This document shows positions 5,067 to 62,723 of a stretch of 64,000 bases of DNA, piece after piece (the first letter of the stretch is position 1; every line of letters begins with the position of its first letter). The notes beneath the pieces are model-generated. The model was not told where the DNA came from. It was given only the letters and a program-made list of their open reading frames with translations, and made no database searches. Source of the stretch: Vicinamibacterales bacterium (GTDB lineage: Bacteria; Acidobacteriota; Vicinamibacteria; Vicinamibacterales; JAMQPK01); the NCBI GenBank assembly GCA_023717525.1, contig JAMQPK010000021.1:612-64611 (forward strand), given 5' to 3'. The position numbers and the translations under genes are program-made.

Positions 5067-5101
5067 TACTTCTTACTTCCTACTTCCTACTTCTTACTTT
5101 C
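5067..5101. repeat. Tandem heptamer array (TACTTCY)x5, single arm
   Basis: Read directly: TACTTCT TACTTCC TACTTCC TACTTCT TACTTTC. It fills the gap between convergent genes (stop at 5056, stop at 5101-5103). No inverted partner is nearby. Confidence 0.8.
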
Positions 5102-5985
5102 TAGTTGAGCGATGCCACTCTCCTCCGCAGCGTCTTCACATGCTCCCACAGCTGTTCATGGTCAGACCGCGATTCTTCGTCGACTGCCGCGCCGGACGTG
5201 AAGTGCAAGTACTGCTGGAGATCCCGCAAGGCGGCCGAGAAATCGTTCATGTGATAGGCCAGCAGTCCTCGATCGCGCAATTCGGTCAGGGCCGGCGGAT
5301 CGACCGCCAGCAGCAGTTCCGTGACGCTCCGCGCCTGCGGGAACGAGTGCAGGCGCACGTAAATCCGCTTCAGGTTCAGCAGGATGCGCGTCAGCATCTG
5401 CGGCTTCGTAGCCGGAGCCAGCAGTTCGTTATCGAACGGCGCGCTTTCGCCGACGTGCCGCTCGAAAAGCCGGCGGCAGTCGTGCTCCGTCAGGCGCGCA
5501 CCGCGATGAAACGGGTCGAGAATGAGGTCGGTCGTCGTTGATCCCTCGTTCCGATGCGGTGGATAGCGCATCAGGAAGTGTCCGGGGAAGTTGATGCCCT
5601 CGACGTGAATGCCTGCACGTCTGGCGACTTCCATGTAAACGAGAGCCAGCGTAATAGGGATGCCAGTTCGACGGTCGAGCACTTCGTTGAGAAAACTATT
5701 GCTGGGATCCTCGTACCGGTCGCGATTGCCAGTGAAGCCCTCTTCCTCAAACAGGTACGCGTTCAAGACATCGACGGCACTCTCGGACTTCCGGGCGTCC
5801 TGCAAACATCCACTCGCGAGCAATCGCTCGCGCGCGGCTGCCCCCATGGCGTCGAGTTGTGCAAGGTACGGCGCTGGATCGAGAAGTGGACACTCGAGCC
5901 TCGCGATGACCAGCGCCGGCGAGGCGAGGTCGCGTTCGGGACTCGCCGCGAGCCTGGAAAATTCCTGGATGAGGGCGTCCTTCAT
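5101..5985 (-). CDS. SirB1/YchA-like protein (transglutaminase-like N-domain plus TPR-like C-domain)
   Basis: 294 aa. YEDPSNSFLNEVLDRRTGIPITLALVYMEVARRAGIHVEGINFPGHFLMRY is the signature region of the SirB1 / UPF0162 family. Confidence 0.75.
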   Translation of the reverse strand: MKDALIQEFSRLAASPERDLASPALVIARLECPLLDPAPYLAQLDAMGAAARERLLASGCLQDARKSESAVDVLNAYLFEEEGFTGNRDRYEDPSNSFLNEVLDRRTGIPITLALVYMEVARRAGIHVEGINFPGHFLMRYPPHRNEGSTTTDLILDPFHRGARLTEHDCRRLFERHVGESAPFDNELLAPATKPQMLTRILLNLKRIYVRLHSFPQARSVTELLLAVDPPALTELRDRGLLAYHMNDFSAALRDLQQYLHFTSGAAVDEESRSDHEQLWEHVKTLRRRVASLN

Positions 5986-6671
5986 GGTTCCCGTCCATTA
6001 TCGCGCACGATGGCTTCCAACCGAGGGATCGTAATCTCGCTGAGGTGTTCGACGACGAGATCGGCGGCGGTCAGATCTGCCGCCGGATAGGTGTGGGTGA
6101 CCGCGACGCATCGAAGGCCGGCACTACGAGCGGCTTCGAGTCCCCAATGCGAGTCCTCGATGGCAATGCAGGAGCCCGGGTTCAGCACTTTCACATCGCG
6201 CAGCTTGGCCATCGCGAGCATATAGAGATCGGGCGCCGGCTTTCCGCGCACGCCGTCCGACGCCGACGCAATTGCGTGAAAATACTCACGAAGCCCCGCG
6301 TGATCGAGCACCAGCGCGATCTCCGGTTCCAGAGCGCCCGATGCCACCGCCAGCGGGACGCGTGACGCACACCGTTTTACGCACTCGACGGCTCCCGGGA
6401 AGAGCACGCCGGCACTCGACAGCAGATCTTCGACGATCTCGGACTTTGCGGCGATCCACTCGTCGATTGTGCCGCCGTCGTGCTGCAACCCTCGATCCTT
6501 CACCAGCGCACGGAACAACCCCAGGTCGTCATAGCCGAGATACTTGGCGTAGTACTCCTCTCGGCCGAGTTCGATTCCGTCTCGCTGAAGGACAGACTGA
6601 TATGCGCGCAGATGCAGCGGCTCGCTGTCGGCGATCACCCCGTCGAAATCGAAGAAGACGGCTTGAAGCAT
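5982..6671 (-). CDS. HAD-superfamily hydrolase (beta-phosphoglucomutase-like subfamily IA)
   Basis: The internal ATG at 6669-6671 overlaps the upstream stop. The N-terminus MLQAVFFDFDGVIADSE carries the DxDG motif; a later EDSxxG motif is present. Confidence 0.85.
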   Translation of the reverse strand: MLQAVFFDFDGVIADSEPLHLRAYQSVLQRDGIELGREEYYAKYLGYDDLGLFRALVKDRGLQHDGGTIDEWIAAKSEIVEDLLSSAGVLFPGAVECVKRCASRVPLAVASGALEPEIALVLDHAGLREYFHAIASASDGVRGKPAPDLYMLAMAKLRDVKVLNPGSCIAIEDSHWGLEAARSAGLRCVAVTHTYPAADLTAADLVVEHLSEITIPRLEAIVRDNGREP

Positions 6672-7288
6672 CAACGAAGGCGCTGGCCGGCGCGAATCGG
6701 CACAGGCAGACGGTTTTCCTTCGGCGGATAGGGGCAATCGAACGTCGAATTGTAGTAGCAGTAGGGGTTATAGGCCTTGTTGAAGTCGACGTTGTAGAGG
6801 CCGGTCGGCGTGCGCTCCAGATCGAGGTAACGTCCGGCTGCGTACGTTTCCGTTCCGCTCGTCAGATCGCTGAACGGCACGAACAGACGATTCAGGTCAT
6901 TCGATCCGGCTTCGATGAAGGCGCCGAGCGTCAGCGGCCGGCCCTGCAGAGTGAATTCGAGCACGCCGACGCGCTCCTCCTTCCGTGTTTCGCCGGTTGA
7001 GGTCGGCATGTCGACGAAGATGCGCTGGTCGGCGAGCTTCAGTGACGCCGGCACGACGTACTCGACATCCGGCGGAAAGTATTTCAGCGGCAGAAGCGTG
7101 TCCATCAGATGCGGTGGCACCGGCTGGTTCGGGCGGCTCCGAAACGATTCATCCAGCTCTGCCCGCGCCGCCTGAAGCTGCTCGGGGTAGCTGGCATCCG
7201 AGTCGGGCGGCGGCGGACTTCCGCCATTGCACGCAACCAGCATTCCTGACGTCAACACCGTCAGCACAACCTGAAAACGTAACCTCAT
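6671..7288 (-). CDS. DUF1684 family lipoprotein
   Basis: Lipobox LVAC follows a signal sequence. The C-terminal AYNPYCYYNSTFDCPYPPKENRLPVPIRAGQ matches the conserved DUF1684 signature. Confidence 0.8.
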   Translation of the reverse strand: MRLRFQVVLTVLTSGMLVACNGGSPPPPDSDASYPEQLQAARAELDESFRSRPNQPVPPHLMDTLLPLKYFPPDVEYVVPASLKLADQRIFVDMPTSTGETRKEERVGVLEFTLQGRPLTLGAFIEAGSNDLNRLFVPFSDLTSGTETYAAGRYLDLERTPTGLYNVDFNKAYNPYCYYNSTFDCPYPPKENRLPVPIRAGQRLR

Positions 7289-9006: not shown

Positions 9007-10136
9007 CACGCGATCCTCTCGAGAATTCCGGCCGCGCCCATTCCACCGCCGACGCACATCGTCACGAGGCCGTAGCGCGACTGACGGCGTGCCATCTCAT
9101 AAATGATGCTCGTCGTCAGCTTCGCTCCCGTGCAGCCGAGCGGATGACCGAGGGCGATAGCGCCGCCGTTGACGTTCAACCGTTCTTCGTCCATCGGCAA
9201 CTCGCGAAGGCAGGCGATGACTTGAGCGGCAAACGCTTCGTTCAGCTCGATCACATCCATTTCGTTCAACGAGAGGCCCGCCAGCTTCAGCACCTTCCGA
9301 ATCGCCGGCACGGGGCCAATGCCGAAGCGCTCAGGCGCGACACCGGCCGTGGCAAACGCGACGAACCGCGCAAGCGGCTTCAGCTGGCGTTCCTTTGCAA
9401 AACGATCGGACGTCAACAGCACGACCGACGCGCCGTCGCTCATCTGCGAGGAATTTCCAGCGGTGACGGTACCTCTCACGTGAAATGCCGGTTTCAGCTT
9501 TGCGAGCGCGTCGAGCGATGTGTCGCGACGAGGCCCTTCATCGGTAGCCAGGGCCCCGATCGGCAGCGTCTCCTCACGAAACCTTCCGGCATCGATCGCA
9601 GCCACCGCCCGCTGGTGACTGCGGAACGCGAACGCGTCTTGTGCGTCACGAGAGATCTTGTAGTCCCGTGCGTGATTTTCCGCGACGAGTCCGGTGCTCA
9701 GATATACGTCTGGATAGGAGTCAATGAGGGCGGGATTCGGCGCGACCTTGTTGCCGCCCATCGGCACCAGGCTCATGCTTTCGGTGCCGCCGGCAATGAT
9801 GACTGAAACTGAACCGCCCCTGATCCGGTCGGCGCCAAAGGCGATCGCCTGAAGGCCGGAGGCGCAGAATCGATTGATCGTCACGGCAGACGCTTCAACA
9901 GGGATACCGGCCCGGAGACTGGAGATGCGCGCCACGTTCAGCCCCTGCTCGGCTTCGGGCATCGCGCATCCGATGATGACGTCCTCCACATCCGCCGGAG
10001 ACACACCCGGCGCGCGATTCAGAACTTCGCGCATCACTGCCGCCGCCAGCTCGTCTGGCCGTGTCGAGCGCAGCGATCCCGCCGGTGCTTTTCCGACTGG
10101 TGTGCGGACAGCTGACACGATGACAGCATCAGTCAT
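9006..10136 (-). CDS. fadA: Acetyl-CoA C-acyltransferase (thiolase)
   Basis: Start at [16 protein letters not shown]. Active-site regions [32 protein letters not shown] and CVGGGMG are seen. Confidence 0.92.
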
Positions 10137-11539: not shown

Positions 11540-11551
11540 CGTGTCAGTTCG

Positions 11552-13794: not shown

Positions 13795-16794
13795 ATGGCT
13801 TGGCTTCGGACTGCGCTCACAGTGATGTGTCTTGCGGTGGCCGGCCTGGCATCCGCGCAGACCCGCGCGACGAGCGCCGATCTCACGGGCACGGTCGTGG
13901 ACCAGCAGTCGGCCGTTCTGCCCGGCGCCACGGTGACCGCCACCAACAACGACACCAACTACAGCCGAAGCGCCACGACGGATGAAGCCGGTCACTTCCT
14001 GATCCCGGCCCTGGCGCCAGGGCGCTACAGTGTTCGCGCCGAACTTCAGGGTTTTTCGCCGCGCAGCGTAAACGATGTGGTCCTGTCGCTTGGCAGCCAG
14101 ATTGACGTGCGGCTGCAACTCAACGTCGCGGGTGGCCAGGAACTGGTCGTCGTTGCTGGAACGGCGCCGCTCGTGGATCCGCAGAAGACGGTCGTTTCCA
14201 GCGTCATCGCCCAGGAACAAATCGAGCGCCTGCCCATCAATGGCCGCAGCTTCATTGGCTTCTCGCTGCTGACGCCGGGCGTGTCGACTGACAGGACACC
14301 GCAGCAGGGCGCTTCTGGGACGTCGGGTCTGACGTTCGCCGGACAGCGCGCCCGCTCGAACAACATCACGGTCGATGGGCTCGACAACAACGACGCGTCG
14401 ATCGGCGCAGTTCGCGCGACGTTCAGCCAGGAAGCCGTGCGCGAGTTTCAGGTACTGACGAACTCGTACTCCGCGGAGTTCGGCAAAGCGGTGGGTGGCG
14501 TCGTCAACATCGTGACCAAGAGCGGTACCAATACCCTGGGCGGCAACGCGTTCTACTTCGGCCGTGATGATGGACTCAACGCGAAGGACCATTTTGAGAA
14601 GTTCGACGTCAACGGCAACGAAATTTCGCGGGAGAAAGCGCCATACGGACAGAAGCAGTACGGCGGCACGCTCGGCGGGCCCATCCGGCGCGACAGGACC
14701 TTCTACTTCGTGTCGTTCGAGCGGCTCGACATCAGCGCCAACAACTTCGTGACGATCGACGACACGACGCCCGTCACCTATGCCGGTCAGAACTTTGGCA
14801 CGGCGGCTCAGATTCTGCGCAACGCAGGCTTTCCCGTGCAGACCGGCAATGCGCCCTATCGGGTGCAGTCGAGTCAGTTTCTCGGCAAGATCGACCACAC
14901 GCTGGATACCAGTAACGTGCTGACAACGCGGTTCAACTGGGCACAGGATCTGAACGAGAACATCGAGCCGTTTGGCGGCATCGTGGCGCGCAGCCGGGGC
15001 GGCGTGTTGAACAGCCACGATGTGATGTTCGCCGCCTCTGAAACCTCCGTGCGTTCATCCAAGATGGTGAACGAGATGCGGTTTCAAGTGGCGCTTCGCG
15101 ATCAGACAGTGCGATCGCTCGATCCGTTGTGTGGTGGGGAATGCATTGAGGAAAATCAGGGTGGACCGACGCTCGAGGTCCTCGGCGTCGCCAGTGTGGG
15201 CCGCCAGCGATTTACGCCGCAGCCTCGGAGAAATACGCGATACCAGGTGCTCGATACGGTCAGCTACTACACCGGCGCACATCAGATGAAGGCGGGGATC
15301 GATTTCAACTACATCGATCAGAGCGAGCAGAGCCTTCCGCTCCATTTTGGGGGGCGCTATATCTTTGCGACGATCCCTGCAGCGCAGGCTCCGCTGCTCG
15401 GCCTGCCGCCTCTCGAAGTGTCGCCGATCGTCGCTGTAAAGCTGGGCATTCCCGGGCGCTATGTTCAGGGCTATGGCAACTCGCTCGCCCCCTATACCTA
15501 CAGCGATTTTTCAATGTTCGCGCAGGACGACTGGCGGATCACGCCGCGGTTGACGGCGAAAGTCGGCCTCCGCTATCAGGTGCAGATGTGGCCCGACGTG
15601 AACTACACGGTGGCCGGTTATCCGGATATGTACCAATTTCCCGGTGACGGCAACAACCTTGCGCCACGGTTCGCCGTGGTGTGGGATCCAACCGGCGATC
15701 GCAAGACGACGGTTCATGGCGCGTACGGCATCTACTTCGACAATCTCATTACCGGCCTCGTCGGCATTACGAAAGGGATCAACGGACGCGACGGTGTGAG
15801 GACACTCGTCGCGTCGTTGCCGACGACGGCGGCTGCGTGGAATACGCCGGGCCGCCGGCTTCCGGAGCCGTCAACTCCATACCCAAGCCTGGTGATTTCC
15901 ATCGACCCCGGACTTCAGACGCCCTACGCGCATCATCTGGCGGGTGGCATCGCGCACGAGCTGCCAGGGCAGACGTCGCTTTCGGCCGACGTCATCTACG
16001 TTCGCGGCTTCAAGCAGCCGTCGACGCTCGACTACAACCCGCTTGTTCCGTCCCTGGGCGCCGGCAGACGGCCTGCGGATGTGAATGGCGTTCCTGGCAC
16101 GTCGAACTCAGTACTGCAGTACACCTCGTTCGGCGAAACGTGGTACCGCGGCCTGACGGTATCGGCCGTCAGACGTTTCATGAACCGCCATCAGCTCTTG
16201 ATGAGCTATACGTTGTCAAAGGCGGAAGACAACGGCACCGACTTTCAGAGCGAGTTCATCGCTCAAGACAGCGGGCGTGGCCGAGACCCCGGCAATCTGA
16301 AGGGGCTTCCACTGGCGTTCGATCCCGATTCAGAGAAGGGGCCATCGGTTCAGGATGAGCGGCACAGGTTTGTGGCGAGCGGTATCTATGTGCTGCCGCG
16401 CGACATCGAGCTGTCGTCGATCATCACGATCGGATCCGGGCGTCCCTTCAATATTCTGGCGGGCGCGGATTTGAACGGCGATGGAGACGGAGGCGCGACC
16501 GATCGGGCGCGGGGAACGCTGAGCGACATCACCACATCGGCGATGCGCGACGCCGGTACGCTGCCTGCGCAGGCGACCGTCGACTTGCGCGTGGCAAAGC
16601 GATTCGTGGCGGGTCCCACCCGCGTGGAAGGGATTTTCGAGATCTTCAATCTGCTCAACAGGGCGAACTACACTGCCGTGAACAATGTGTGGGGCACGGG
16701 AGCCTATCCCGGGTCGCCGGTGTCGAGCTACGGGAAGTTCACGCAGGCGGGGCCGCCGCTGCAGATGCAGCTCGCCGTCAAGGTCAGCTTCTAA
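13795..16794 (+). CDS. TonB-dependent receptor-like outer membrane protein with N-terminal carboxypeptidase-regulatory-like domain
   Basis: The ATG at 13795 follows GAGG. Signal peptide ends ...GLASAQ. GTVVDQQSAVLPGATVTATN..GHFLIPALAPGRYSV is CarboxypepD_reg-like. A plug-like region and a long beta-barrel follow, ending ...KVSF. Confidence 0.85.
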   Translation: MAWLRTALTVMCLAVAGLASAQTRATSADLTGTVVDQQSAVLPGATVTATNNDTNYSRSATTDEAGHFLIPALAPGRYSVRAELQGFSPRSVNDVVLSLGSQIDVRLQLNVAGGQELVVVAGTAPLVDPQKTVVSSVIAQEQIERLPINGRSFIGFSLLTPGVSTDRTPQQGASGTSGLTFAGQRARSNNITVDGLDNNDASIGAVRATFSQEAVREFQVLTNSYSAEFGKAVGGVVNIVTKSGTNTLGGNAFYFGRDDGLNAKDHFEKFDVNGNEISREKAPYGQKQYGGTLGGPIRRDRTFYFVSFERLDISANNFVTIDDTTPVTYAGQNFGTAAQILRNAGFPVQTGNAPYRVQSSQFLGKIDHTLDTSNVLTTRFNWAQDLNENIEPFGGIVARSRGGVLNSHDVMFAASETSVRSSKMVNEMRFQVALRDQTVRSLDPLCGGECIEENQGGPTLEVLGVASVGRQRFTPQPRRNTRYQVLDTVSYYTGAHQMKAGIDFNYIDQSEQSLPLHFGGRYIFATIPAAQAPLLGLPPLEVSPIVAVKLGIPGRYVQGYGNSLAPYTYSDFSMFAQDDWRITPRLTAKVGLRYQVQMWPDVNYTVAGYPDMYQFPGDGNNLAPRFAVVWDPTGDRKTTVHGAYGIYFDNLITGLVGITKGINGRDGVRTLVASLPTTAAAWNTPGRRLPEPSTPYPSLVISIDPGLQTPYAHHLAGGIAHELPGQTSLSADVIYVRGFKQPSTLDYNPLVPSLGAGRRPADVNGVPGTSNSVLQYTSFGETWYRGLTVSAVRRFMNRHQLLMSYTLSKAEDNGTDFQSEFIAQDSGRGRDPGNLKGLPLAFDPDSEKGPSVQDERHRFVASGIYVLPRDIELSSIITIGSGRPFNILAGADLNGDGDGGATDRARGTLSDITTSAMRDAGTLPAQATVDLRVAKRFVAGPTRVEGIFEIFNLLNRANYTAVNNVWGTGAYPGSPVSSYGKFTQAGPPLQMQLAVKVSF

Positions 16795-21138: not shown

Positions 21139-21609
21139 GTGAAGATCAAGCGCACTCTGGCACTGGCGGTCGTCGTCGGACTCAGCTTTTCGAGCGCCGC
21201 GTTCGCCGCCGAAAAGGAGGACGCCAGATTGGAACGCGAGCGCAGGCTCGATGCCGCGCAGCAGGCTTCGACGATGACGCCGATGGCTGGCTACGTGCCG
21301 GAGATGAAACGTCCCACGGCGCTTACTGCTCTTTATGCGACGCTCGGGGCTATGCAGGCGTGGGACGTCTACAGCACTACAGCAGCTCTGAAGGCAGGCG
21401 CGACGGAAGCGAACCCGATGGCCGCACCGTTTGCGGGCAACACCGGATCGATGCTGGGCATGAAGGCCGCAACCACGGTCGGAACGATTTTCTTCGCCGA
21501 GCGGATGTGGAAGAAGAACAAAGTGGGCGCCATCGTGATGATGGTCGCGATCAACAGCGCGACGGCTGCCGTTTCGATGCACAACATGCACAACGCCCAT
21601 AGTCGTTAG
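21139..21609 (+). CDS. DUF5658-like small membrane protein with signal peptide
   Basis: GTG at 21139, 7 nt after GAGGAG. Signal peptide ends ...SSAAFAAE. WDVYSTTAALKAGATEANPM matches the D..sT...l..G..E.NP motif of DUF5658. Two C-terminal hydrophobic segments. Confidence 0.65.
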   Translation: MKIKRTLALAVVVGLSFSSAAFAAEKEDARLERERRLDAAQQASTMTPMAGYVPEMKRPTALTALYATLGAMQAWDVYSTTAALKAGATEANPMAAPFAGNTGSMLGMKAATTVGTIFFAERMWKKNKVGAIVMMVAINSATAAVSMHNMHNAHSR

Positions 21610-21926
21610 TCGTTCGGCGTTGGTCGTTAGTCCCGGTCGTTGGTCGTTGGTCACAGTCGTTAGTCCCTTGCTCGCCTCGCCAACTGCATCGCTTACACAG
21701 TGAAGATCATCATCATTTGAACGCGCCGTGGTCTTGACAGCGCCATGGGCTGCGGCAAGGAATACTCGCTTCAGCCGATCAGTGAGATTCTGAACCTACA
21801 GGGTATCGACTTGGTGGCGGGATTCAAGCTGACGTCGGGCACGTCTCAGCGTTCGCATTGAGACTAACGACGAACGACTGAGACCAACGACTGGGACCAA
21901 TGACCAACGACGAACGACCAACGACT
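21601..21926. repeat. Long imperfect inverted repeat (arms about 65 nt of GTCGTTR heptamer-like units) flanking a roughly 195-bp unique core; MITE-like or giant hairpin
   Basis: The left arm (21601-21667) and the reverse complement of the right arm (21862-21926) align over the first 45 nt or so with about 7 mismatches. The arms touch the stop codons of the two convergent genes. Confidence 0.6.
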
Positions 21927-26088: not shown

Positions 26089-26549
26089 TGGCGCAGTCAT
26101 CCCCGATTCAACGATCAGGCGGGCAGAAGGGGCAGGCGATTGGCCTGGTGCTCGTGCGCATTTCCCTGGGGGTTTACTTGTTCTGCACCGGTGCCAGCAA
26201 GATTTCGTGGCTGCTTGATTCGACGCACCTGACCAGCCAGTTTGGGCAGTGGCTGAGCGACGCGACGCCGATGAGCCGGTGGTACCTCGACCGCATGATG
26301 CCGGGTGCCCCGATTTTCGCGCGCATCATTCCTGTGGCGGAAATGGCTGGAGGACTGGGGCTGGCATTGGGGGCCTGGCCGCGGCTGGCAGCGGCGCTGT
26401 GTCTCGTCGTGGTGTTGAACCTGCAGGTCGCTGCGGCGGCGATGTTCAGATTGTCGTACCTTACAGACGCCACCGGGTTACCGATCGTCGGTGCGCTGCT
26501 GGGGCTGATGATCGGAGGAGGGAAACTTCCGCTCAGCTTGCGCAAGTAA
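26088..26549 (+). CDS. DoxX-like integral membrane protein
   Basis: The ATG overlaps the upstream TGA (TGATG). About 4 hydrophobic helices; LVLVRISLGVYLFCTGASK resembles the DoxX N-terminal motif. Confidence 0.55.
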   Translation: MAQSSPIQRSGGQKGQAIGLVLVRISLGVYLFCTGASKISWLLDSTHLTSQFGQWLSDATPMSRWYLDRMMPGAPIFARIIPVAEMAGGLGLALGAWPRLAAALCLVVVLNLQVAAAAMFRLSYLTDATGLPIVGALLGLMIGGGKLPLSLRK

Positions 26550-26553
26550 TTTC

Positions 26554-26580
26554 AAATCTCAAATTTCAAATTTGAGATTT
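26554..26580. terminator. Perfect 13-bp AT-rich palindrome (AAATCTCAAATTT c AAATTTGAGATTT), probable bidirectional terminator
   Basis: Read directly. It is embedded in the heptamer array TTTCAAA TCTCAAA TTTCAAA TTTGAGA TTTCCAA (26550-26584), which fills the gap between convergent stops at 26549 and 26586. Confidence 0.6.
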
Positions 26581-26585
26581 CCAAT

Positions 26586-27323
26586 TCAGTGGATGCGCTT
26601 GTCGTTCTTGCCTCCAGTGTGGATCGCGAATTTCTTCCTCGCCTTGTCCATCTTCCACCGCAGATATCGGTACCTGACTTCGCTCGCAGGGCTGAAACGT
26701 GGGCGGCGGAGCAGCGCGTAGCCGGCGACGAGACCACCAAGATGCGTGATGTGCGCGACCCCGCTGCCCGAGCCCTCCACTGCCTGCAGAAGCACGATGA
26801 CGCCCACGATCATCACGAAGTACTTCGCGGGAATCGGAAACACGACAAGGAGAATTGTTCGGTTCGGAAAAATCAGACCGTACGCCAGCAGCAACCCGAA
26901 GATTGCACCCGATGCCCCAATGGTCACCGAGTCGTAGAGCGGCGCCGTCACCTCAAAAGGAAGAATCGAAAAGAGAATGGTTGTGACCCCCGCTGCAATG
27001 CCTGTGGCGAAGTAGTAACGGAGAAACGCCGGTGTGCCCCACATCCGCTCGAGTTCGGTGCCGAACATCCAGAGCGCGAGCATGTTGAACAGGATGTGGC
27101 CGATTCCCCCATGGAGGAACATGTAGGTGACGAGCTGCCAGAGGCGGAGCTGCTGGAAAATTGCCGCCGGCATCAGGCCCAGGAATTCCGTCATCCAGGG
27201 AAAGACGTACCGCGAGAGCAGGAACACCACCGCGTTAGTGATGATCAGCGCTTTGATGGCAGGTGAGAGAGGGCCGGGGCCGAACGAGTACGCGAGGTCG
27301 CGCGTCGATGGATAGCGGCGCAT
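26586..27323 (-). CDS. Rhomboid-family intramembrane serine protease
   Basis: 6-7 TM helices, the GASGAIFGLL catalytic Ser motif, and a later AHxxHLGG-like motif (AHITHLGGLVAG). Confidence 0.9.
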   Translation of the reverse strand: MRRYPSTRDLAYSFGPGPLSPAIKALIITNAVVFLLSRYVFPWMTEFLGLMPAAIFQQLRLWQLVTYMFLHGGIGHILFNMLALWMFGTELERMWGTPAFLRYYFATGIAAGVTTILFSILPFEVTAPLYDSVTIGASGAIFGLLLAYGLIFPNRTILLVVFPIPAKYFVMIVGVIVLLQAVEGSGSGVAHITHLGGLVAGYALLRRPRFSPASEVRYRYLRWKMDKARKKFAIHTGGKNDKRIH

Positions 27324-37745: not shown

Positions 37746-37813
37746 CGGTGTGAATCTATCATGCGAGGGGGCGAAAATTTAGCGTAACCTCTTACCACAC
37801 TACATTTTAACCG

Positions 37814-37842
37814 TTGACTTCGATATACCCGTCCTCTACTAT
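37814..37842 (+). promoter_or_regulatory. Sigma-70-type promoter upstream of mraZ: TTGACT-N17-TACTAT
   Basis: Read directly: -35 TTGACT (37814-37819), a 17-nt spacer, and -10 TACTAT (37837-37842), about 40 bp upstream of the mraZ GTG. Confidence 0.55.
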
Positions 37843-37846
37843 CGCC

Positions 37847-37871
37847 ATGGACTTTTTTGGAAAGAAATGGA
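37847..37871 (+). promoter_or_regulatory. Three direct (A/T)TGGA repeats at exact 10-bp phasing; candidate MraZ operator
   Basis: ATGGA (37847), TTGGA (37857) and ATGGA (37867) lie between the -10 box and the mraZ start. MraZ proteins are known to bind phased short direct repeats in their own promoter. Confidence 0.45.
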
Positions 37872-37881
37872 GTAGCCGAGC

Positions 37882-38322
37882 GTGCTTCGGGGCAACTCGC
37901 CGGCGAAAATTGACGATCGGGGGAGACTCAAGATCCCCAACGGGTTCCGCTCGTTCATCGAAGATGAACACGGGCGCGCCATCTACGTCACAAGTGTGCT
38001 CGGCGATTCGGTCCGCATCTACCCAATGCCGGTCTGGGCAGCCATCGAGCAGAAGCTCTCCACCATTCCCTCGACACACCCATCCCGCTTGAAATTCCTG
38101 GACCGGGTCAATTTCTACGGCCAGGTCACGGAAATCGACAGCCAGGGCCGCGTCGTGATTCCTTCACGCCTTCGGGAGTCCGCCACGATGGTGGGTGAGG
38201 TCGACGTGTTCGGCCAGATGAACTACCTCGAGGTCTGGAACCACGAACGCTTCGTCGCCAAGCTGCAGCGCGATCCGTTTACCGATGACGATGCACGGGC
38301 GCTTTCGGATCTGGGTTTATGA
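37882..38322 (+). CDS. mraZ: Transcriptional regulator MraZ
   Basis: MLRGNSPAKIDDRGRLKIPNGFR and a second DSQGRVVIPSRLR repeat give two SpoVT-AbrB-like halves. First gene of the dcw cluster. Confidence 0.92.
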   Translation: MLRGNSPAKIDDRGRLKIPNGFRSFIEDEHGRAIYVTSVLGDSVRIYPMPVWAAIEQKLSTIPSTHPSRLKFLDRVNFYGQVTEIDSQGRVVIPSRLRESATMVGEVDVFGQMNYLEVWNHERFVAKLQRDPFTDDDARALSDLGL

Positions 38323-39215
38323 CGATTCATCATGAACCCGTGATGACGCGCGAGGTTCTCGCGTTTCTTCAACCGGAGAAAGGCGGGGTGTTCCTGGACT
38401 GCACCGTCGGGTTGGGCGGTCATGCCCGGGCCATGCTGGAGGCCGGCGCCACGAGGGTGATCGGCCTCGATCGCGACCCGGCAGCCCTTGCCCTTGCCTC
38501 GCAGGCGCTCGCAGGATTCGGCGATCGGGTGGAGCTCGTGCACTCGGACTATCGGTCGTTCGAGTCTGTTCTTGATGCCAGAGGCATCCGCGCTATCGAC
38601 GGCGCGCTTGCCGACCTCGGCATGTCGTCGTATCAGCTCGAGGCCGAAGGCCGCGGGTTCAGTTTTCAGCGTGAAGACCCGCTCGACATGCGGATGGACA
38701 CCACCGCGGGTCCAACGGCTGCGGATTTGCTGAGCGGTGCCTCAGAGAGCGAGATCGCCGACGTCATCTACCAGTTCGGCGAAGAGCGGTTCTCGCGCCG
38801 TGTCGCCAGGGCGATTGTGGAAAACCGCGAAACGGCGGCCATCCGCACGACCGGACAGCTGGCGGCCATCGTGCGCCACGCGATTCCCCGTCGCGGCTTT
38901 TCGCGCATCGATCCGGCGACGCGCACGTTTCAAGCCCTGCGCATCTGGGTGAATCGCGAGCTCGAGGGACTTGATGATTTTCTCGGCAGGCTTGCCCGGC
39001 GCCTGAGTACCGGCGCCCGCATGGTGGTGTTGACGTTTCACTCGCTCGAAGATCGGATTGCCAAGCACGCGCTCCGGGCGTTGGCGCAACGGGAAGGCAC
39101 ACCGCTTCGGATCCTGACGAAAAAGCCGGTCGTTCCGCAGAACGACGAAGTCGATCGAAACCCACGGGCACGGAGCGCGAAACTGCGCGCGGTCGAATGC
39201 CTGATCGATCAGTGA
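38319..39215 (+). CDS. rsmH: 16S rRNA (cytosine1402-N4)-methyltransferase RsmH
   Basis: HEPVMTREVL, DCTVGLGGH, DLGMSSYQL and FHSLEDRIAK motifs. Confidence 0.95.
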   Translation: MTIHHEPVMTREVLAFLQPEKGGVFLDCTVGLGGHARAMLEAGATRVIGLDRDPAALALASQALAGFGDRVELVHSDYRSFESVLDARGIRAIDGALADLGMSSYQLEAEGRGFSFQREDPLDMRMDTTAGPTAADLLSGASESEIADVIYQFGEERFSRRVARAIVENRETAAIRTTGQLAAIVRHAIPRRGFSRIDPATRTFQALRIWVNRELEGLDDFLGRLARRLSTGARMVVLTFHSLEDRIAKHALRALAQREGTPLRILTKKPVVPQNDEVDRNPRARSAKLRAVECLIDQ

Positions 39216-45628: not shown

Positions 45629-46942
45629 ATGTTTTCGGTGGAACGGAAGACAGTGACGGTCGTGGGTGCGGCGCGCAGCGGCATCGCCGCCGCGCTGCTG
45701 CTCGTCGATCGCGGTGCGCGGGTCACGTTGACGGACACGCGGCCGTCCCTCGACGACGCGCAGGCAGATGCCCGGCTGAGAGGCGCCGGAGTGTCGCTCG
45801 AGTTCAATGGGCATCGTCCGGAAACGTTCATGTCGTGCGATCTGATTGTGCTGAGCCCGGGCGTTTCGCTGGAACAGCCGCAGGTCTCGGCGGCCCGGCG
45901 TGCCGGCGTTCCGGTGATCGGGGAGCTGGAGCTGGCGTCGCGCTGGCTCAGCGGGCGCATCGTCGCCATCACCGGCACGAAAGGCAAGTCGACGACGACA
46001 ACATTGACGGGCCGGATGTTCGTCGCCGGAGGACTGAAGGCGCTCGTGGGAGGCAACATCGGAACGCCGCTGAGCTCCCAGGTGGCGGACTCGACACCCG
46101 ACACATTTCATATCGTCGAGGCCAGCAGCTTTCAACTGGAGGCGACCGATACGTTCCACCCGTGGATTGCCGTGATGCTGAACATCTCACCGGATCACCT
46201 TGATCGTCATGCATCGTTCGCTGAATACGCCAGGGCGAAAGCGAAGATCTTCGCCAATCAGCACGAAGACGACTGGGCCGTCATCAACGCCGACGATCCG
46301 GAAACCCTTGCGATGGCGCGTCAGGGCCGCGCACGCACGATGACGTTCTCGGCCGAGCGACCGCTCGTGCCGCTGTCGTCGATTCGGTTGATAGGAAGGC
46401 ATCTGGTCGCCGACGTGATGGCCGCCGCGACCGTTGCGCAGATCGCCGGAGTGCCGCAGGACGCGATGGTTCGAGCCGTGGAGTCCTTCAGCGGGCTCGA
46501 GCACGCGCTCGAGCCCGTCGAAACCGTTCACGGAGTCCACTTCGTGAACGACTCGAAGGCGACGAACGTGGATGCAGCCAAGCGTGCGATCGAGAGCTTC
46601 GAGAAGGGGCTGGTCGTGATTATGGGCGGGCGCTTCAAAGGCGGCGATTTCCGGCTGCTGCGCGAGCCACTCGCGGCGAGACAGGCGACGGTCGTCGCCA
46701 TCGGCGAGGCGCAGTCGCTGATTCAGTCGACGTTCGAGGGAATGGTGCGCGTGGAAACGGCGGCGTCGCTGGCCGATGCGGTCCGCGTGGGCTACGTGCT
46801 GGCGCAGCCCGGTGGCACGGTGGTGTTGTCGCCGGCATGCGCCAGCTTCGACATGTTTCGCGACTATGCCGAGCGGGGTTCAACGTTCAAGCAGGAAGTG
46901 AGGAGGCTGGCAGAGGAAGCGAAAACATCGCGCGAGCAGTGA
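45629..46942 (+). CDS. murD: UDP-N-acetylmuramoylalanine--D-glutamate ligase
   Basis: VVGAARSGIAAA Rossmann-like N-terminus, ITGTKGKSTTT P-loop, and NDSKATN. Confidence 0.93.
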   Translation: MFSVERKTVTVVGAARSGIAAALLLVDRGARVTLTDTRPSLDDAQADARLRGAGVSLEFNGHRPETFMSCDLIVLSPGVSLEQPQVSAARRAGVPVIGELELASRWLSGRIVAITGTKGKSTTTTLTGRMFVAGGLKALVGGNIGTPLSSQVADSTPDTFHIVEASSFQLEATDTFHPWIAVMLNISPDHLDRHASFAEYARAKAKIFANQHEDDWAVINADDPETLAMARQGRARTMTFSAERPLVPLSSIRLIGRHLVADVMAAATVAQIAGVPQDAMVRAVESFSGLEHALEPVETVHGVHFVNDSKATNVDAAKRAIESFEKGLVVIMGGRFKGGDFRLLREPLAARQATVVAIGEAQSLIQSTFEGMVRVETAASLADAVRVGYVLAQPGGTVVLSPACASFDMFRDYAERGSTFKQEVRRLAEEAKTSREQ

Positions 46943-47055
46943 GCAGTCGTCAGTCGGCCTTGGCGGTAGAGAGCTGGCTGCTGGGAACACAGGCCGCCCC
47001 GGCCCGTGAAGCTGGTGTCTCAACCCTTGGGCTGACTGATGACTGCTGACTGCTC
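46934..47055. repeat. 26-nt inverted repeat of heptamer-like units (GAGCAGT...) flanking a 70-bp core inside the murD-ftsW spacer
   Basis: Left arm GAGCAGTGAGCAGTCGTCAGTCGGCC (46934-46959). The reverse complement of the right arm (47030-47055) matches it at 23 of 26 positions. Confidence 0.65.
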
Positions 47056-47126
47056 GCGCAGCACCGTGTGACTGATATGTCGGGACGAAGGCGCTTTTGC
47101 TTTAGTCCCGACCGAAGGCAGGGAGT

Positions 47127-48227
47127 ATGGCCCGAAAGCTGAAGTCCGACAAGGTACTGTTCATGGCGACGCTGCTGCTCGTTGGCGCGAGCGTCATCAT
47201 GGTGTACAGCGCTTCGGCCGTTCTCGCGCAGAACCGGTACAGCCAGCCGTATTTCTTCTTGATCAGGCAGGCCATGTGGGCGGCGCTCGGTCTAGCAGTG
47301 ATGAGCATCGCCATGCGGTTCGACTATCGGAACTACCGGGCGCCCTCGTTCATCTGGCTGTCGCTGGGCGGGGTCACGCTGGCACTGGTCGCCGTCCTGT
47401 TCAGCCGGCCGATTAACGGCAGCAGCCGATGGTTCGGGCTCGGCGGCATCGGTGTCCAGCCATCCGAGCTTGCAAAGTTGAGCGCCATCTTCTTCACCGC
47501 CGCCATCCTCGAGCGAAGAATGGATCGCATCGACGAAATTCCGTATGCGCTCGTTCCGATTGGGCTCGTGGTCGGCATGCTGGTCGGCCTGATTCTTCTC
47601 GAGCCCGATCTCGGGACGTCGATCACGCTGGTGCTCATCGCCGCGGCGATGGTCTTCGCCGCCGGCGTCAGCTACCGCTATGTCGTTGGCGTGCTGCTTG
47701 GTGGACTCCCGATCGCCTACCTGCTGGTCATGGGCTCGGCGTATCGACGCCGCAGGCTCATGGCGTTCTGGGATCCGTGGAGAGATCCGCTCGGCGACGG
47801 TTTTCAGGTGATTCAATCGCTGATCGCCGTCGGAGCCGGCGGCGTGACGGGACGAGGATTCATGGGCGGCGTGCAGAAGCTGTTCTATCTGCCAGAGCCA
47901 CACACCGATTTCATCTTCGCGGTGATCGGCGAAGAGCTCGGGCTCCTTGGCACGACCGTGATTCTGTTGTGCTTTCTGGCGATCGCGTGGCGCGGGTTTC
48001 AGATCGCCATGGACGCACCGGATCGTTTCGGATCGTTTCTCGCGGTCGGTCTCACCACGATGTTTGCGGCGCAGGCGTTCTTCAATATCAGCGTCGTCCT
48101 GGGACTGGTGCCGACCAAGGGGATTCCATTGCCGTTTGTGAGCGCCGGCGGTTCGTCGCTGCTCATCAGCCTGCTGGGCATGGGCATTCTGCTCAATGTG
48201 TCGCAGCATTCGGCGCCCGGATCGTGA
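47127..48227 (+). CDS. ftsW: Peptidoglycan glycosyltransferase FtsW (SEDS family)
   Basis: About 10 TM segments. Contains QPSELAKL, PEPHTDFIFAVIGEELG and LVPTKGIPLPFVSAGGSS. Confidence 0.9.
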   Translation: MARKLKSDKVLFMATLLLVGASVIMVYSASAVLAQNRYSQPYFFLIRQAMWAALGLAVMSIAMRFDYRNYRAPSFIWLSLGGVTLALVAVLFSRPINGSSRWFGLGGIGVQPSELAKLSAIFFTAAILERRMDRIDEIPYALVPIGLVVGMLVGLILLEPDLGTSITLVLIAAAMVFAAGVSYRYVVGVLLGGLPIAYLLVMGSAYRRRRLMAFWDPWRDPLGDGFQVIQSLIAVGAGGVTGRGFMGGVQKLFYLPEPHTDFIFAVIGEELGLLGTTVILLCFLAIAWRGFQIAMDAPDRFGSFLAVGLTTMFAAQAFFNISVVLGLVPTKGIPLPFVSAGGSSLLISLLGMGILLNVSQHSAPGS

Positions 48228-51617: not shown

Positions 51618-51652
51618 GGGAAGGGCTAAGGGCTGAGGGCTAAGGGCACTGA
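51618..51652. repeat. Tandem heptamer array (GGGCTAA/GGGCTGA units), single arm, in the ftsQ-ftsA spacer
   Basis: Read directly: GGGAAGGGCTAAGGGCTGAGGGCTAAGGGCACTGAG. The same units recur after ftsZ at 54188-54216. Confidence 0.75.
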
Positions 51653-51666
51653 GAAAAGAGGGTGCG

Positions 51667-54168: not shown

Positions 54169-54187
54169 GACACGCAGCATTTCTGTC

Positions 54188-54245
54188 AGGGCTGAGGGCT
54201 AAGGGCTGAGGGCTGACTGGCCGTGAGCCCTTAGCCCTCAGCCCT
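54188..54245 (+). terminator. 20-bp perfect stem hairpin built from GGGCTGA/GGGCTAA heptamers, at the 3' end of the dcw cluster
   Basis: AGGGCTGAGGGCTAAGGGCT (54188-54207) pairs perfectly with AGCCCTTAGCCCTCAGCCCT (54226-54245). The loop is 18 nt. No clear U-tract follows. Confidence 0.55.
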
Positions 54246-54336
54246 TCCTGATACACTAGGTATACCCACGGAAGACGGGATCGGCGGCGTCGCAGGCTGA
54301 GCAGCCTGCCGCCAGAAGAGTCCTTCCTCAGCATTT

Positions 54337-56940: not shown

Positions 56941-56946
56941 CGATCG

Positions 56947-57735: not shown

Positions 57736-57797
57736 AAAAACGCGAAAACCCGCCTTATGCAACCCGAAGGGGCGTTCCTCCGTAAGGAAGGAGAAGG

Positions 57798-60150: not shown

Positions 60151-60153
60151 AGG

Positions 60154-61152
60154 CTATCTCTGCTGGTCTCCGTTCTCCGGTACGCCCGGTTCGTCGAGGA
60201 GCTGTGTCGATGATGCTGGCCCGAAGTTCTTCCAGTCGCGCAGTGCCCAGACGACCTTCTTGTCGGGGGTCACTTCGATCAACTGAACGACGTTCGGCCA
60301 TTCCTCGAACGGCCGGCTACCGCTCCAGTTGTTGATCAATGTGTTGCCGTTGGCGAGCCGCGTGACCTCCTGAACGACTTCCAGGGTGATGCCTGGGAGC
60401 TCGTTCTTGGTGATTTCCCACACGATCTGGCCGGCTTTGTTCACCTCGCGCACCCAGCCGTGCTGATTGCCGCTTATCAGCGTGTTGCCGTTCTTCAGTC
60501 GCACGGCCGCCCATGCCGACGGCGCGTCGACCGACCAGATTGCCTTGCCCTTGGTGTCGTACTCCACGACTTTTCCAAGATCGAGATGTGCCACGAGCAG
60601 CGTGTTCGCCTTCGTCCAACGGATGTGACGCACCTGTCCGTGCGCGTTTTCCGGACGCCGAACCGGGATCGTCCACTCCCGCTCGACATCGCCGGATTTC
60701 TTATTGACGATCATCGCTTTCGCTGGATTCCCGTTCAGCATGATCAGGACGCGATCCTTGCCGATCGGTTGCGCGGTGTGGATCTCCGATCCCGGCGGCG
60801 CCTCGTAGTGCCACACGAGCTTCTTGCCAGACGTCACCTCGCTTGCACCGAGACGCCGCGAAAACACGATGTTGCCGTTCGACATTCGCGTGCAGTCGCC
60901 GAACTCCTCCTTGCCGGGGATATAGAACGTCCACACGACTTCTCCCCCGCGAACAATCCGCATGGTTTGATTCGACTTGCCGCGGTTCTCCCACTCGCCG
61001 CAGTAAAGGAACGGATGCTGCGCGAGGCCCTTGCCCGGCAAAGGCGCGTCGGACATTGGAGATTGGGCGATAGGTTGGGCGATGGGAGATTGGGCGAGTG
61101 GGGAAGCGACGGCAGCCAAGGCCAGCAAGGTCACGATCGGCGTGCGTTTCAT
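60154..61152 (-). CDS. Secreted beta-propeller-like protein
   Basis: Signal peptide, then repeated ...G.VVW.../NGNTLI... blades (VVWTF, LVWHY, AIWSV, IVWEI, VVWAL). The family was not identified. Confidence 0.55.
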   Translation of the reverse strand: MKRTPIVTLLALAAVASPLAQSPIAQPIAQSPMSDAPLPGKGLAQHPFLYCGEWENRGKSNQTMRIVRGGEVVWTFYIPGKEEFGDCTRMSNGNIVFSRRLGASEVTSGKKLVWHYEAPPGSEIHTAQPIGKDRVLIMLNGNPAKAMIVNKKSGDVEREWTIPVRRPENAHGQVRHIRWTKANTLLVAHLDLGKVVEYDTKGKAIWSVDAPSAWAAVRLKNGNTLISGNQHGWVREVNKAGQIVWEITKNELPGITLEVVQEVTRLANGNTLINNWSGSRPFEEWPNVVQLIEVTPDKKVVWALRDWKNFGPASSTQLLDEPGVPENGDQQR

Positions 61153-61208
61153 CTCATGTCACCCATGAATGTTCACTCTCTACGGGCCCAAAGCCCAGAG
61201 CCTGAAGC

Positions 61209-61619
61209 CTACTGCGAAGCCGCCGTGCCTTCGTCCATTGCCAGATTGGCGAGCCGGTCGGCATGCGTGTTCTGCTCGCGCCGGACGTGCTCGTACACGA
61301 CGCGGTCGAAACCGTCTGCCAGCGCCTTGGCCTCCTGATAGAGCGGTTGGAGGCCGGCGTTCTTCACACGGTACTCGCCCCGCATCTGCTTCACGAGCAG
61401 CTCCGAATCCGACTTGATGTGAAGCTTGCGATGGCCGTGCCCCGTCGCATAGCGAAGGGCGGCGAGCAATCCGTTGTACTCGGCGATGTTGTTGGTCGCG
61501 CTGCCCAGAAAACCGTGGAATTCTTCCACGAGGCCTCCCTGCTCGTCCTCGATGCGGACGCCATAGCCGGCTGGGCCGGGATTTCCCCTCGCGCCCCCGT
61601 CAATGTAGGCGACGATCAT
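61209..61619 (-). CDS. rnhA: Ribonuclease HI family protein
   Basis: DGGARGNPGPAGYG, NNIAEYNGLLAAL, and SDSELLV...NTHADRLAN supply the DEDD catalytic residues. Confidence 0.88.
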   Translation of the reverse strand: MIVAYIDGGARGNPGPAGYGVRIEDEQGGLVEEFHGFLGSATNNIAEYNGLLAALRYATGHGHRKLHIKSDSELLVKQMRGEYRVKNAGLQPLYQEAKALADGFDRVVYEHVRREQNTHADRLANLAMDEGTAASQ

Positions 61620-61622
61620 CGA

Positions 61623-62378: not shown

Positions 62379-62397
62379 AGGGACGGCCGCCTATAAC

Positions 62398-62419
62398 AAA
62401 AAAGCCCCGTGGGGGGCTT
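62398..62419 (-). terminator. Intrinsic terminator downstream of the tRNA
   Basis: The minus strand reads AAGCCCC-CCAC-GGGGCTT followed by TTTT: a 7-bp GC stem, a 4-nt loop and a T-run. Confidence 0.7.
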
Positions 62420-62423
62420 CGCA

Positions 62424-62519
62424 GTAGGTAGAAGGTGGAAGGTGGAACGTGGAACGTAGAAAGTAAGCCCCGAACTTTCGAGCTTACCTTCCACTTTCCA
62501 CTTTCCACTTTCCACTTTT
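62424..62519. repeat. Hairpin built from GGTGGAA/CGTGGAA heptamer arrays, 3' of the tRNA
   Basis: Left arm GTAGGTAGAAGGTGGAAGGTGGAACGTGGAACGTAGAAAGTAAG. Right arm CTTACCTTCCACTTTCCACTTTCCACTTTCCACTTTT. The A-C mismatches on the plus strand become G-U pairs in the minus-strand RNA. Confidence 0.7.
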
Positions 62520-62542
62520 GACCTGCATGCATTCATAAGATG

Positions 62543-62618
62543 TGGTGGGCCCACCAGGATTCGAACCTGGGACAGGCCGGTTATGAGCCGGCGGCTCTGA
62601 CCGCTGAGCTATAGGCCC
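62543..62618 (-). tRNA. tRNA with anticodon CAU (elongator Met or lysidine-modified Ile2), CCA encoded
   Basis: Folded by hand: acceptor GGGCCTA/TGGGCCC, D-arm GCTC/GAGC, anticodon stem GCCGG/CCGGC with loop CTCATAA, and T-arm CCAGG-TTCGAAT-CCTGG. G1:C72 is paired and there is no GGG/CCC anticodon stem, so it is not an initiator. The C4:G69 and C5:G68 pairs resemble TilS determinants. Confidence 0.9.
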
Positions 62619-62631
62619 GAGGTACTTTGCT

Positions 62632-62723
62632 GAAACGTGGAAAGTTGAAAGTTGAAGGTGGAAGGTACGTTCAGAGCTCTTTCCACCTACCCTCAACTTT
62701 CCACCTTCCACTTTTCCACCTAC
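62632..62723. repeat. Imperfect hairpin of GTGGAAA/GTTGAAA/GGTGGAA heptamer arrays between rpoD and the tRNA
   Basis: GGTGGAA (62657-62663) pairs with TTCCACC (62681-62687). The flanking heptamer units pair with internal loops. Confidence 0.65.

Follow-up and report, generated by a model that had tools for sequence, protein, structure and literature searches.

Why should a bacterial genome carry, at the ends of its genes, a series of short tandem arrays that share a period of seven nucleotides but almost nothing of their sequence? The question is raised by a 64-kb stretch of Vicinamibacterales (Acidobacteriota) DNA, hereafter the window, which its FtsZ relatives place in that order and in which such arrays occur at eight loci (numbered 1 to 8 in Table 1). 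Seven of the eight loci are heptanucleotide simple-sequence-repeat (SSR) arrays, which are of a known kind. The eighth, in the spacer between murD and ftsW, appears from comparative sequence evidence to be an ancient, sequence-conserved structured RNA and not a labile array. Taken as a whole, we consider it fairly probable that heptamer SSRs are born by slippage and tolerated 3' of genes, that their mirrored forms serve as transcript-end or processing stem-loops, and that the murD-ftsW hairpin is a separate RNA.

The excess of period-7 arrays is real and specific, because a lag-7 self-match scan (at least 4 units, at least 80% self-match) returned 9 arrays in the window against 0 in 30 dinucleotide-preserving shuffles, and the same scan returned 0 arrays at periods 8 and 10-15, with no other non-codon period enriched. 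At 3 units the scan gave 11 arrays against a shuffle mean of 0.47. Head-to-tail units of at most 11 nt, in runs longer than chance, are the defining feature of SSRs. Tandem Repeats Finder (TRF) placed period-7 arrays at 5065-5103, 21600-21665, 21862-21925, 26548-26586, 47031-47054 and 51621-51647 in the first half of its list, and at 54188-54216, 54226-54246, 62426-62461, 62489-62518, 62631-62663 and 62696-62719 in the second, with scores of 32-60. These loci had been named in an earlier, sequence-only reading of the window, which named comparison with shuffled sequence as one check; TRF agrees with it to within a few bases, the sequences are as it described them, and the excess over shuffles consists entirely of intergenic arrays. 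Moreover, its contention that the loci share period and architecture rather than sequence is borne out. The units are TACTTCY, GTCGTTR, TTTCAAA, GAGCAGT, GGGCTRA and GTGGAAA, and we found no sequence family common to the loci: almost every locus has a unit of its own, apart from two units that are each shared by two neighbouring loci (51618/54188 and 62424/62631).

The placement of the arrays is equally consistent. All of them lie within the 7.3% of the window that is intergenic, adjoining stop codons or the tRNA gene; restriction to non-coding DNA is characteristic of SSR units that do not fit the triplet frame. They occur in 3 of 5 convergent and 5 of 12 co-directional gaps, and in 0 of 7 divergent ones. 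The idea that each array fills its gap almost exactly holds only at 5065-5103 and 26548-26586, where the gaps measure 44 and 36 nt; the other arrays take up one third to four-fifths of theirs. Contact with stop codons, which had also been proposed, is seen at loci 1-5 and nearly so at loci 6 and 8. At ftsZ/radical-SAM and murD/ftsW the hairpins are placed between the stop codon and the next promoter-like box.

Inverted-repeat search and folding together identify six loci as inverted pairs and two (5065 and 51618) as single arms, the division that had been read from the sequence. Folding energies were -156.9 kcal/mol for pair 2 (21600/21862; z -8.4), -93 kcal/mol for locus 4 (46930-47059; z -8.7), -55.8 kcal/mol for pair 6 (54186-54249; z -8.6), -55.5 kcal/mol for pair 7 on its sense strand (62424-62523; z -8.1), -43 kcal/mol for pair 8 (62631-62722; z -5.0) and -12.1/-12.2 kcal/mol for array 3 (26548; z -2.6/-3.2). 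No secondary structure emerged from folding either strand of array 1 (5065-5103) or from folding array 5 (51618). The two arms of pair 2 are mirrored in register, an irregular 13-nt block included, and a shift by one unit only slightly worsens their alignment; several pairing registers may thus be possible for mirrored arms. One arm of pair 7 is 100% perfect by TRF and its partner has diverged, leaving a stem mismatch every 7 nt, a pattern that points to homogenisation within the arm by slippage and not to strict upkeep of pairing. Pairs 7 and 8 are also complementary to each other across the tRNA gene that they flank (62480-62519 against 62633-62672, 85% over 40 nt). No T run or U tract follows any of the heptamer hairpins, and a terminator scan picks out 62420-62401 alone, which is separate from hairpin 7; for these two reasons we do not regard the periodic hairpins as ordinary intrinsic terminators. 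Hairpin 7 is additional to that terminator, not its replacement.

The comparison with relatives draws on 80 FtsZ-centred loci from GTDB genomes (1.36 Mb in total, 1.04 Mb of it from Vicinamibacterales) and on 80 metagenome loci (0.61 Mb), with a 50-kb E. coli dcw region as a control. The closest FtsZ match to the window is 83% identical, and no relative with a more similar FtsZ was found, the metagenome scan included. Exact-protein look-ups with FtsZ and FtsA gave no match. The look-up with MraZ led to one 1,961-bp Logan contig (L081, from SRR19536934) that is 100% identical to window positions 36681-38641, so the organism is present in an independent assembly; the contig, the only one of the same strain, overlaps no array.

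The period-7 excess extends well beyond the window. The 1.04 Mb of Vicinamibacterales-like loci hold 41 period-7 arrays against about 1 expected, the other Acidobacteriota loci hold 6 against 0 expected, and the E. coli region holds 0. Across the 80 GTDB loci, period 8 gives 5-6 arrays and periods 10-12 none, with periods 6 and 9 also raised, as expected of codon repeats; the metagenome loci contain 24 period-7 and 9 period-8 arrays and 0 at periods 10-12. At least 29 of 47 arrays in the relatives are unambiguously intergenic (12.9% expected, p = 7e-15); divergent gaps account for a single array. The remaining arrays are mostly artefacts of over-extended open reading frame (ORF) calls: our crude ORF caller over-extends 5' ends, 18 arrays of relatives were thereby misclassified as coding, and several of those 18 are intergenic by homology. 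Pooling 80 arrays gave at least 60 unit families with a unit GC content of 52%, and neither stop triplets nor purines nor internal palindromes are over-represented among these units, whose sequence is in effect arbitrary. Period-8 arrays also occur as gene-end hairpins in some relatives (L005 2298-2621, L018 1634-1762, L137 3803-5998 and L142 16572-16683, with a period-8 (CAGTTCTC)x14 array in L142), and the preferred period seems to shift between lineages.

Recurrence is clearest around tRNA-Met. The order rpoD, tRNA-Met, CT398-like gene is kept in 28 sequences, comprising the window and 27 relatives, and in about half of the 27 related loci one or both of the spacers fold as a long, near-perfect hairpin of 7-nt units. 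At least seven different units are used (examples are CAGTCGC, GAAGTGA, GAACTGA, AAGGCAG, AATCGGA, TGCAAAA, GAATGCT and GAGAAGT). The density of arrays in these spacers is 2.0/kb, compared to 0.2/kb elsewhere in intergenic DNA, a 10-fold difference (p = 1e-9). Equivalent terminators follow tRNA-Met in most relatives; the closest relative (L001) has ordinary hairpins and a terminator at this site and no heptamer hairpin. At the tRNA-Met site, position and architecture recur and sequence does not. The comparison of orthologous intergenic regions, which the sequence-only reading had recommended, therefore gives conserved position and architecture with turnover of units, and this turnover, together with the presence or absence of arrays between species, would be indirect evidence for copy-number change by slippage. 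Other structures also occupy these spacers. The rpoD-tRNA-Met spacer of L046 (13222-13582) holds, at the heptamer-hairpin site, a near-perfect non-periodic hairpin of about 190 nt (-137 kcal/mol), and the tRNA-Met to CT398 spacer of L001, L008 and L020 holds a non-periodic hairpin pair (GCCTTCGCTCAC...GCGAAGG; CGCCGTAGCC...), which recurs downstream of tRNA-Met in several relatives that have no heptamer hairpin there.

The ends of ftsQ and ftsZ give a view of how an array may arise. The ftsQ-ftsA spacer measures 7-30 nt in most relatives, and array 5 of the window looks like a local expansion of the stop-codon/ribosome-binding-site sequence, because the close relative L002 reads ...ACGGGCTAAGGGGG... 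there, a seed of one and a half units; in place of the (GGGCTRA)x4 of the window, L002 has GGGCTAAGGG. Past the ftsZ gene, the relatives have either other short-period arrays, which always precede a conserved promoter-like box, or none. No ftsZ ending is commoner among the relatives than GGGCTGA, yet it accounts for only 12 of 134, and seeding of array 6 from the ftsZ stop region is at best weakly suggested. The promoter-like box itself, TGATACACTAGGTATACCCACGG at 54249-54271 in the window (consensus TGGTAnACT...ATCCACGG), stands upstream of the post-ftsZ radical-SAM gene in nearly all Vicinamibacterales loci. We also observed that array 5 (51618-51652) is complementary to the 3' arm of the post-ftsZ hairpin (54224-54246), and long-range pairing that would enclose ftsA-ftsZ is possible in principle. 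L007 has, between ftsA and ftsZ (9634-9977), a unit of about 105 nt repeated three times in tandem.

The murD-ftsW locus stands apart, and the eight loci can no longer be treated as one family, as they had been at the outset. The murD-ftsW spacer is 160-360 nt long in all Vicinamibacterales loci (murD and ftsW overlap in E. coli), and within it lies a hairpin of about 130 nt whose sequence and structure are both conserved. With a covariance model, each of the 50 Vicinamibacterales loci that cover the murD-ftsW region, the window included, yields exactly one copy, on the sense strand and at 105-148 bits, and the other Acidobacteriota loci yield none. In the alignment of 48 sequences used for covariation, RNAalifold predicts 50 pairs, 34 of them with compensatory double changes; paired cells amount to 95.3%, compared to 86.6% in shuffles (0 of 500) and 31-46% with slid partners. 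The sense strand folds better than the antisense strand (-93 against -76 kcal/mol), which is due to numerous conserved G-U pairs. The internal loop, GCUGGGAAC, does not vary, the apical loop is CCCCG, and in about half of the genomes the murD stop is the conserved UGA of the 5' arm. Rfam 15 contains no family for the locus: on 46850-47200 the top-scoring model, for a microRNA, reaches 20 bits where its gathering threshold is 100, and over the whole window the tRNA alone passes its gathering threshold. The murD-ftsW hairpin is thus a well-supported candidate for a new cis-acting RNA in the dcw operon, uncatalogued in Rfam.

This hairpin nevertheless bears a trace of the heptamer arrays. Its outer stem is quasi-7-periodic (GAGCAGT GAGCAGT CGTCAGT in the window), and a 7-nt rhythm, GTGAGCA GTGAGCA GTCRTCA, is kept in the outer stem throughout the order, which suggests, short of proof, that locus 4 descended from a heptamer hairpin. 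A possible hammerhead core (CUGAUGA, in the 3' arm) was considered and rejected, being fully paired and changing to CUGGCGA with compensation. Between the hairpin and the ftsW start, at 47077-47116, lies a TKTCGG-N16-18-CTTTAG(G) box that 38 of 47 loci share, against a background of 0.01 per 120 nt, at a variable distance from the ftsW start codon; it could serve a non-standard sigma factor as promoter, or belong to a small hairpin.

Table 1. Period-7 loci of the window and associated features, with coordinates in the window.
Feature	Position	Strand	Composition	Genomic context	Basis
Array 1	5065..5103	.	(TACTTCY) x5.6, single arm	44-nt gap between convergent peptidase S51 (+, stop 5056) and transglutaminase-TPR gene (-, stop 5101-5103)	TRF, sequence, Pfam
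Array pair 2	21600..21925	.	about 9.5 GTCGTTR-type units (21600-21665) and mirrored inverse (21862-21925); 196-nt spacer between arms; inverted repeat 45 nt at 89%	convergent DUF5658 (+, stop 21607-21609, within the array) and E1 dehydrogenase (-, stop 21926)	Pfam
Array 3	26548..26586	.	TTTCAAA/TCTCAAA units, small hairpin; inverted repeat 19 nt at 89%	36-nt gap between convergent DoxX (+, stop 26549) and rhomboid (-, stop 26586)	Pfam
Locus 4	46930..47059	+	RNA hairpin of about 130 nt (candidate)	murD-ftsW spacer; murD stop (46940-46942) within the 5' arm	
Array 5	51618..51652	+	(GGGCTRA) x4, single arm	ftsQ stop 51615, ftsA start 51667	TRF, Pfam
Array pair 6	54186..54249	+	(GGGCTRA) x4 and inverse x3, short-loop hairpin; inverted repeat 26 nt at 92%	begins 20 nt past the ftsZ stop (54168), directly upstream of the promoter-like box for the radical-SAM gene	
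Canonical intrinsic terminator	62401..62420	-	GC stem and T run	past tRNA-Met and hairpin 7	terminator scan
Array pair 7	62424..62523	-	GGTGGAA/CGTGGAA arm and perfect (TTCCACT) x4.3 arm, hairpin	between tRNA-Met 3' end and intrinsic terminator	
tRNA-Met (CAU)	62543..62618	-		heptamer hairpin on each side	ARAGORN, Rfam
Array pair 8	62631..62722	-	GTGGAAA/GTTGAAA and inverse	between rpoD-like sigma-70 stop (62733) and tRNA-Met	

Two further features of the window may be recorded. The spacer of pair 2 contains a 38-aa ORF (21745-21861, + strand) with coding-like third-position GC, whose stop abuts the second arm; it has no Pfam match, and its sole matches, to large STAND/LRR proteins, are weak and leucine-rich-repeat-like (E 7e-5). 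TRF also lists imperfect repeats at 61058-61109 (period 27 nt, score 62) and 14354-14406 (period 26 nt, score 67), which are unrelated to the heptamer arrays.

Our literature searches found no report of heptanucleotide repeats for Acidobacteriota. The broader statement that arrays of this behaviour belong to no described class has to be given up, since heptanucleotide SSRs are documented (Mrazek 2007, as relayed in PMC4679880 and PMC4692102), and both the inverted heptamer pairs of Xanthomonas (PMC4692102) and the short tandemly repeated repetitive (STRR) sequences of cyanobacteria are precedents. According to the summaries in those two papers, heptanucleotides are the most abundant 5-11-nt SSRs in SSR-rich prokaryotes, and polymerase slippage has been proposed as their source (Mrazek, Guo and Shah 2007, via PMC4679880 and PMC4692102). 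The heptanucleotide long SSRs as there described resemble the window arrays in forming 7-nt tandem arrays beyond chance, in their varied units, in their mainly non-coding position, in the dominance of period 7 and in having replication slippage as the proposed source. The window arrays differ in being mostly mirrored into hairpins and in lying at stop codons, and recurrence at one orthologous site with different units is absent from the description of long SSRs as summarised in these papers.

Closer in architecture are the GGGAATC repeats of Xanthomonas, which form 70-75 inverted pairs per genome and are intergenic and transcribed (Rehm et al. 2015, PMC4692102), with site and type (single or paired) kept between species and length variable. 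The same paper cites three tandem heptanucleotides in Calothrix PCC 7601. Like these GGGAATC repeats and the GGGGAYT repeats of Nostoc (PMC4692102), the window arrays are intergenic heptamer arrays of typically about 4 units; inverted pairs are found at 6 of 8 loci, the site is conserved with differing arrays in relatives, and the GGGCTRA arrays share the G3N4 pattern. One G-rich unit dominates in Xanthomonas and Nostoc, whereas here almost every locus has its own unit, mostly without a G tract: a run of three or four G in each unit is found at the two GGGCTRA loci only and not at the other six. Because the unit differs per locus and most units are without a G tract, G-quadruplex formation is not a common property of these arrays. 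The TAACTGA repeats of marine Beggiatoaceae, a single unit in 2-6 copies located just upstream of start codons, with 1 of 170 sets inverted (MacGregor 2015, PMC4679880), are likewise intergenic heptamer direct repeats, and GAACTGA arrays occur in three of the relatives (L015, L102 and L153). The arrays described here differ in standing after stop codons, in forming mostly inverted pairs and in their many units.

Cyanobacterial STRR sequences share with the window arrays the 7-nt period, several unit families per genome and tandem arrangement in intergenic DNA. The STRR units are CCCCAGT, TTGGTCA and CAACAGT, and stem-loop potential has been reported for such repeats between nif genes. The specific units of (heterocystous) cyanobacteria are not those found here, and the phylum differs. 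STRR units are dispersed in many copies genome-wide; within the 64 kb covered here, two units each recur at two neighbouring loci. Repetitive extragenic palindromes (REP) of E. coli are extragenic stem-loops at gene 3' ends that block 3'-5' exonucleases, and the likeness to them and to bacterial interspersed mosaic elements (BIME) lies in this proposed way of working as 3'-end stem-loops. REP sequences form one conserved palindromic family of hundreds of copies mobilised by RAYT (IS200/IS605-like) transposases, whereas the hairpins of the window have tandem-periodic stems and no shared sequence; the near-identical copies characteristic of REP, BIME and REPIN elements are lacking in the window, where resemblance between hairpins is limited to the neighbouring, unit-sharing pairs. 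We thus agree with the sequence-only reading that the arrays are unlike REP, BIME and ERIC elements. CRISPR arrays, with repeats of about 23-50 nt and unique spacers of comparable length, differ from contiguous 7-nt units.

The reading that we favour would proceed as follows. Next to a stop codon, in non-coding DNA, any 7-nt sequence could act as seed and would be duplicated by slipped-strand mispairing, continued slippage would homogenise the units inside an arm, and a mirrored second arm would probably be made or kept matched by intramolecular template switching at the palindrome. Quasi-palindrome template switching is an established mutational mechanism. Because a 7-nt insertion or deletion shifts the reading frame, arrays persist only where such a change is harmless, that is, just past stop codons, between convergent genes, around tRNA genes and upstream of the next promoter, and not in divergent promoter regions. 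In transcripts, mirrored arrays would form stems of 20-45 bp without a U tract, which would most likely act as 3'-end or processing stem-loops, by blocking exonucleases, by offering RNase III a substrate or by insulating cistrons from each other and tRNA-Met from its surroundings. Position and architecture would persist while units turn over, because any sequence can serve as a stem. The murD-ftsW hairpin, on the sense strand of the dcw cluster between the murD stop and the ftsW promoter-like box, would be an anciently fixed RNA. The functional part of this reading is drawn from the hot spot at tRNA-Met, the balanced mirrored arms and the placement between stop codon and promoter-like box.

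Several observations weigh against it. The two single-arm arrays are without structure. The periodic hairpins have no sense-strand folding advantage (20 against 23 spacers, Wilcoxon p 0.42) and contain few G-U pairs, and a GAATGCT hairpin common to three related genomes shows no compensatory change in its periodic stem. Strand symmetry and the scarcity of G-U pairs fit near-perfect DNA palindromes that are kept matched by a DNA-level process, and the same strand data are equally compatible with young RNA structures. Moreover, the hairpins are dispensable, because L001 and L002 are without arrays at the ftsQ-ftsA, ftsZ-radical-SAM and tRNA-Met sites and their distribution is patchy. Mutation, promoted for example by high transcription, might account for the hot spot instead of selection. 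The account of origin is partly shown and partly inferred, with template switching and the preference for 7 nt as conjecture, and we infer the RNA role for hairpins that carry no RNA-strand signature. From this genome the survey covers 64 kb, and from its relatives the surroundings of ftsZ.

Much of this evidence can also be read without any function, if slippage in this lineage favours 7-nt (sometimes 8-nt) units and, together with quasi-palindrome template switching, strews neutral debris of arrays and palindromes over the 3' intergenic gaps, where constraint on the DNA is lowest. Such an origin agrees with the arbitrary units, the closest relatives without arrays at the same sites, the missing RNA-strand signature, the tolerated periodic mismatches and the replacement of period 7 by period 8 in some lineages, and a similar view of 5-11-nt repeats is taken by the authors of the SSR survey, as summarised in PMC4679880. 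It does not readily account for the 10-fold concentration of arrays in the rpoD-tRNA-Met-CT398 spacers of many genomes with different units, nor for the near-equal unit numbers and mirrored order of the two arms; furthermore, one hairpin with a 7-nt rhythm is kept order-wide with strong covariation, so such structures are selectable. We regard purely neutral debris as rather unlikely, though it deserves serious weight. A role as non-canonical intrinsic terminators, replacing the type with GC stem and U tract in this genome, would suit the gene-end position (three convergent gaps included) and the observation that canonical terminator-like sites show no excess over shuffles in most of the window. 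That no hairpin is followed by a U tract and that a separate canonical terminator follows hairpin 7 speak against this role, as does the harm that full termination would do at hairpin 8, which lies about 10 nt upstream of a co-oriented tRNA gene, and at loci 4 and 5, inside the dcw cluster. We therefore hold it to be improbable.

Explanations that turn on sequence recognition or mobility fare no better. The two GGGCTRA loci (51618-51652 and 54186-54249) might act via G-quadruplexes formed by the DNA or the RNA, which could, for instance, modulate translation of ftsA: both arrays match the pattern G3N4 x4 (x4-5 in array 5), similar GGGAATC and GGGGAYT heptamer repeats form G-quadruplexes in vitro (PMC4692102), and G3 units such as GGGATTT, GGGATCY and GGGGCTA recur in relatives. 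This would cover only 2 of the 8 loci, most of the units in the pool of 80 arrays are without a G tract, and the G-rich arm at 54186 is fully paired in the competing hairpin of -55.8 kcal/mol, for which reasons we give it little credence. It is very improbable that the arrays are iteron-like binding sites at which a protein, such as a global regulator, reads each 7-nt unit and controls transcription or replication. Tandem heptanucleotide repeats of Geobacter metallireducens have been annotated as putative global regulator sites (PMC2700814), but no single protein could read more than 60 different units, and the arrays stand after stop codons and not before promoters, with none of the 7 divergent promoter gaps of the window occupied and a single such case in relatives. 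Least credible of all is the insertion at gene ends of mobile or dispersed elements of the REP/REPIN kind or of miniature inverted-repeat transposable elements (MITE). The loci are hairpin-forming and intergenic, two units are shared between nearby loci (51618/54188 and 62424/62631), and pair 2 looks like an element of 326 bp that ends in inverted arms of 66 nt. Against this, the loci have no common sequence family and each its own unit, the covariance model of locus 4 has one hit in each genome region, the tandem periodicity within the arms is foreign to REP sequences and to MITE terminal repeats, and array 5 can be derived from ancestral local sequence. At pair 2 we saw no flanking duplication and no second copy, and its arms are tandem arrays that run into both stops.

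We also considered a bolder form of the favoured reading, in which Vicinamibacterales would use structure-defined, sequence-free 'periodic hairpins', with arms of 7-nt arrays, pairing in multiple registers and regeneration by slippage, as evolvable elements for processing or insulation at tRNA-Met and at genes of cell division, the order-wide murD-ftsW riboregulator being the fixed descendant of one such hairpin; we find this generalisation doubtful. More generally, these results extend the poorly understood excess of heptanucleotides to the Acidobacteriota, a dominant but little-studied soil phylum. The arrays differ from known heptamer repeats in that almost each locus has its own unit and in their marked association with stop codons and tRNA. 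The occurrence of hairpins with different 7-nt units, genome by genome, at the same sites (rpoD–tRNA-Met–CT398 and the ends of ftsQ, ftsA and ftsZ) provides an unusually clean comparative case, which makes the choice between mutational by-product and selected RNA structure directly testable. A separate yield is the candidate cis-acting RNA of the dcw cluster, which we found in all Vicinamibacterales loci examined and which Rfam does not contain.

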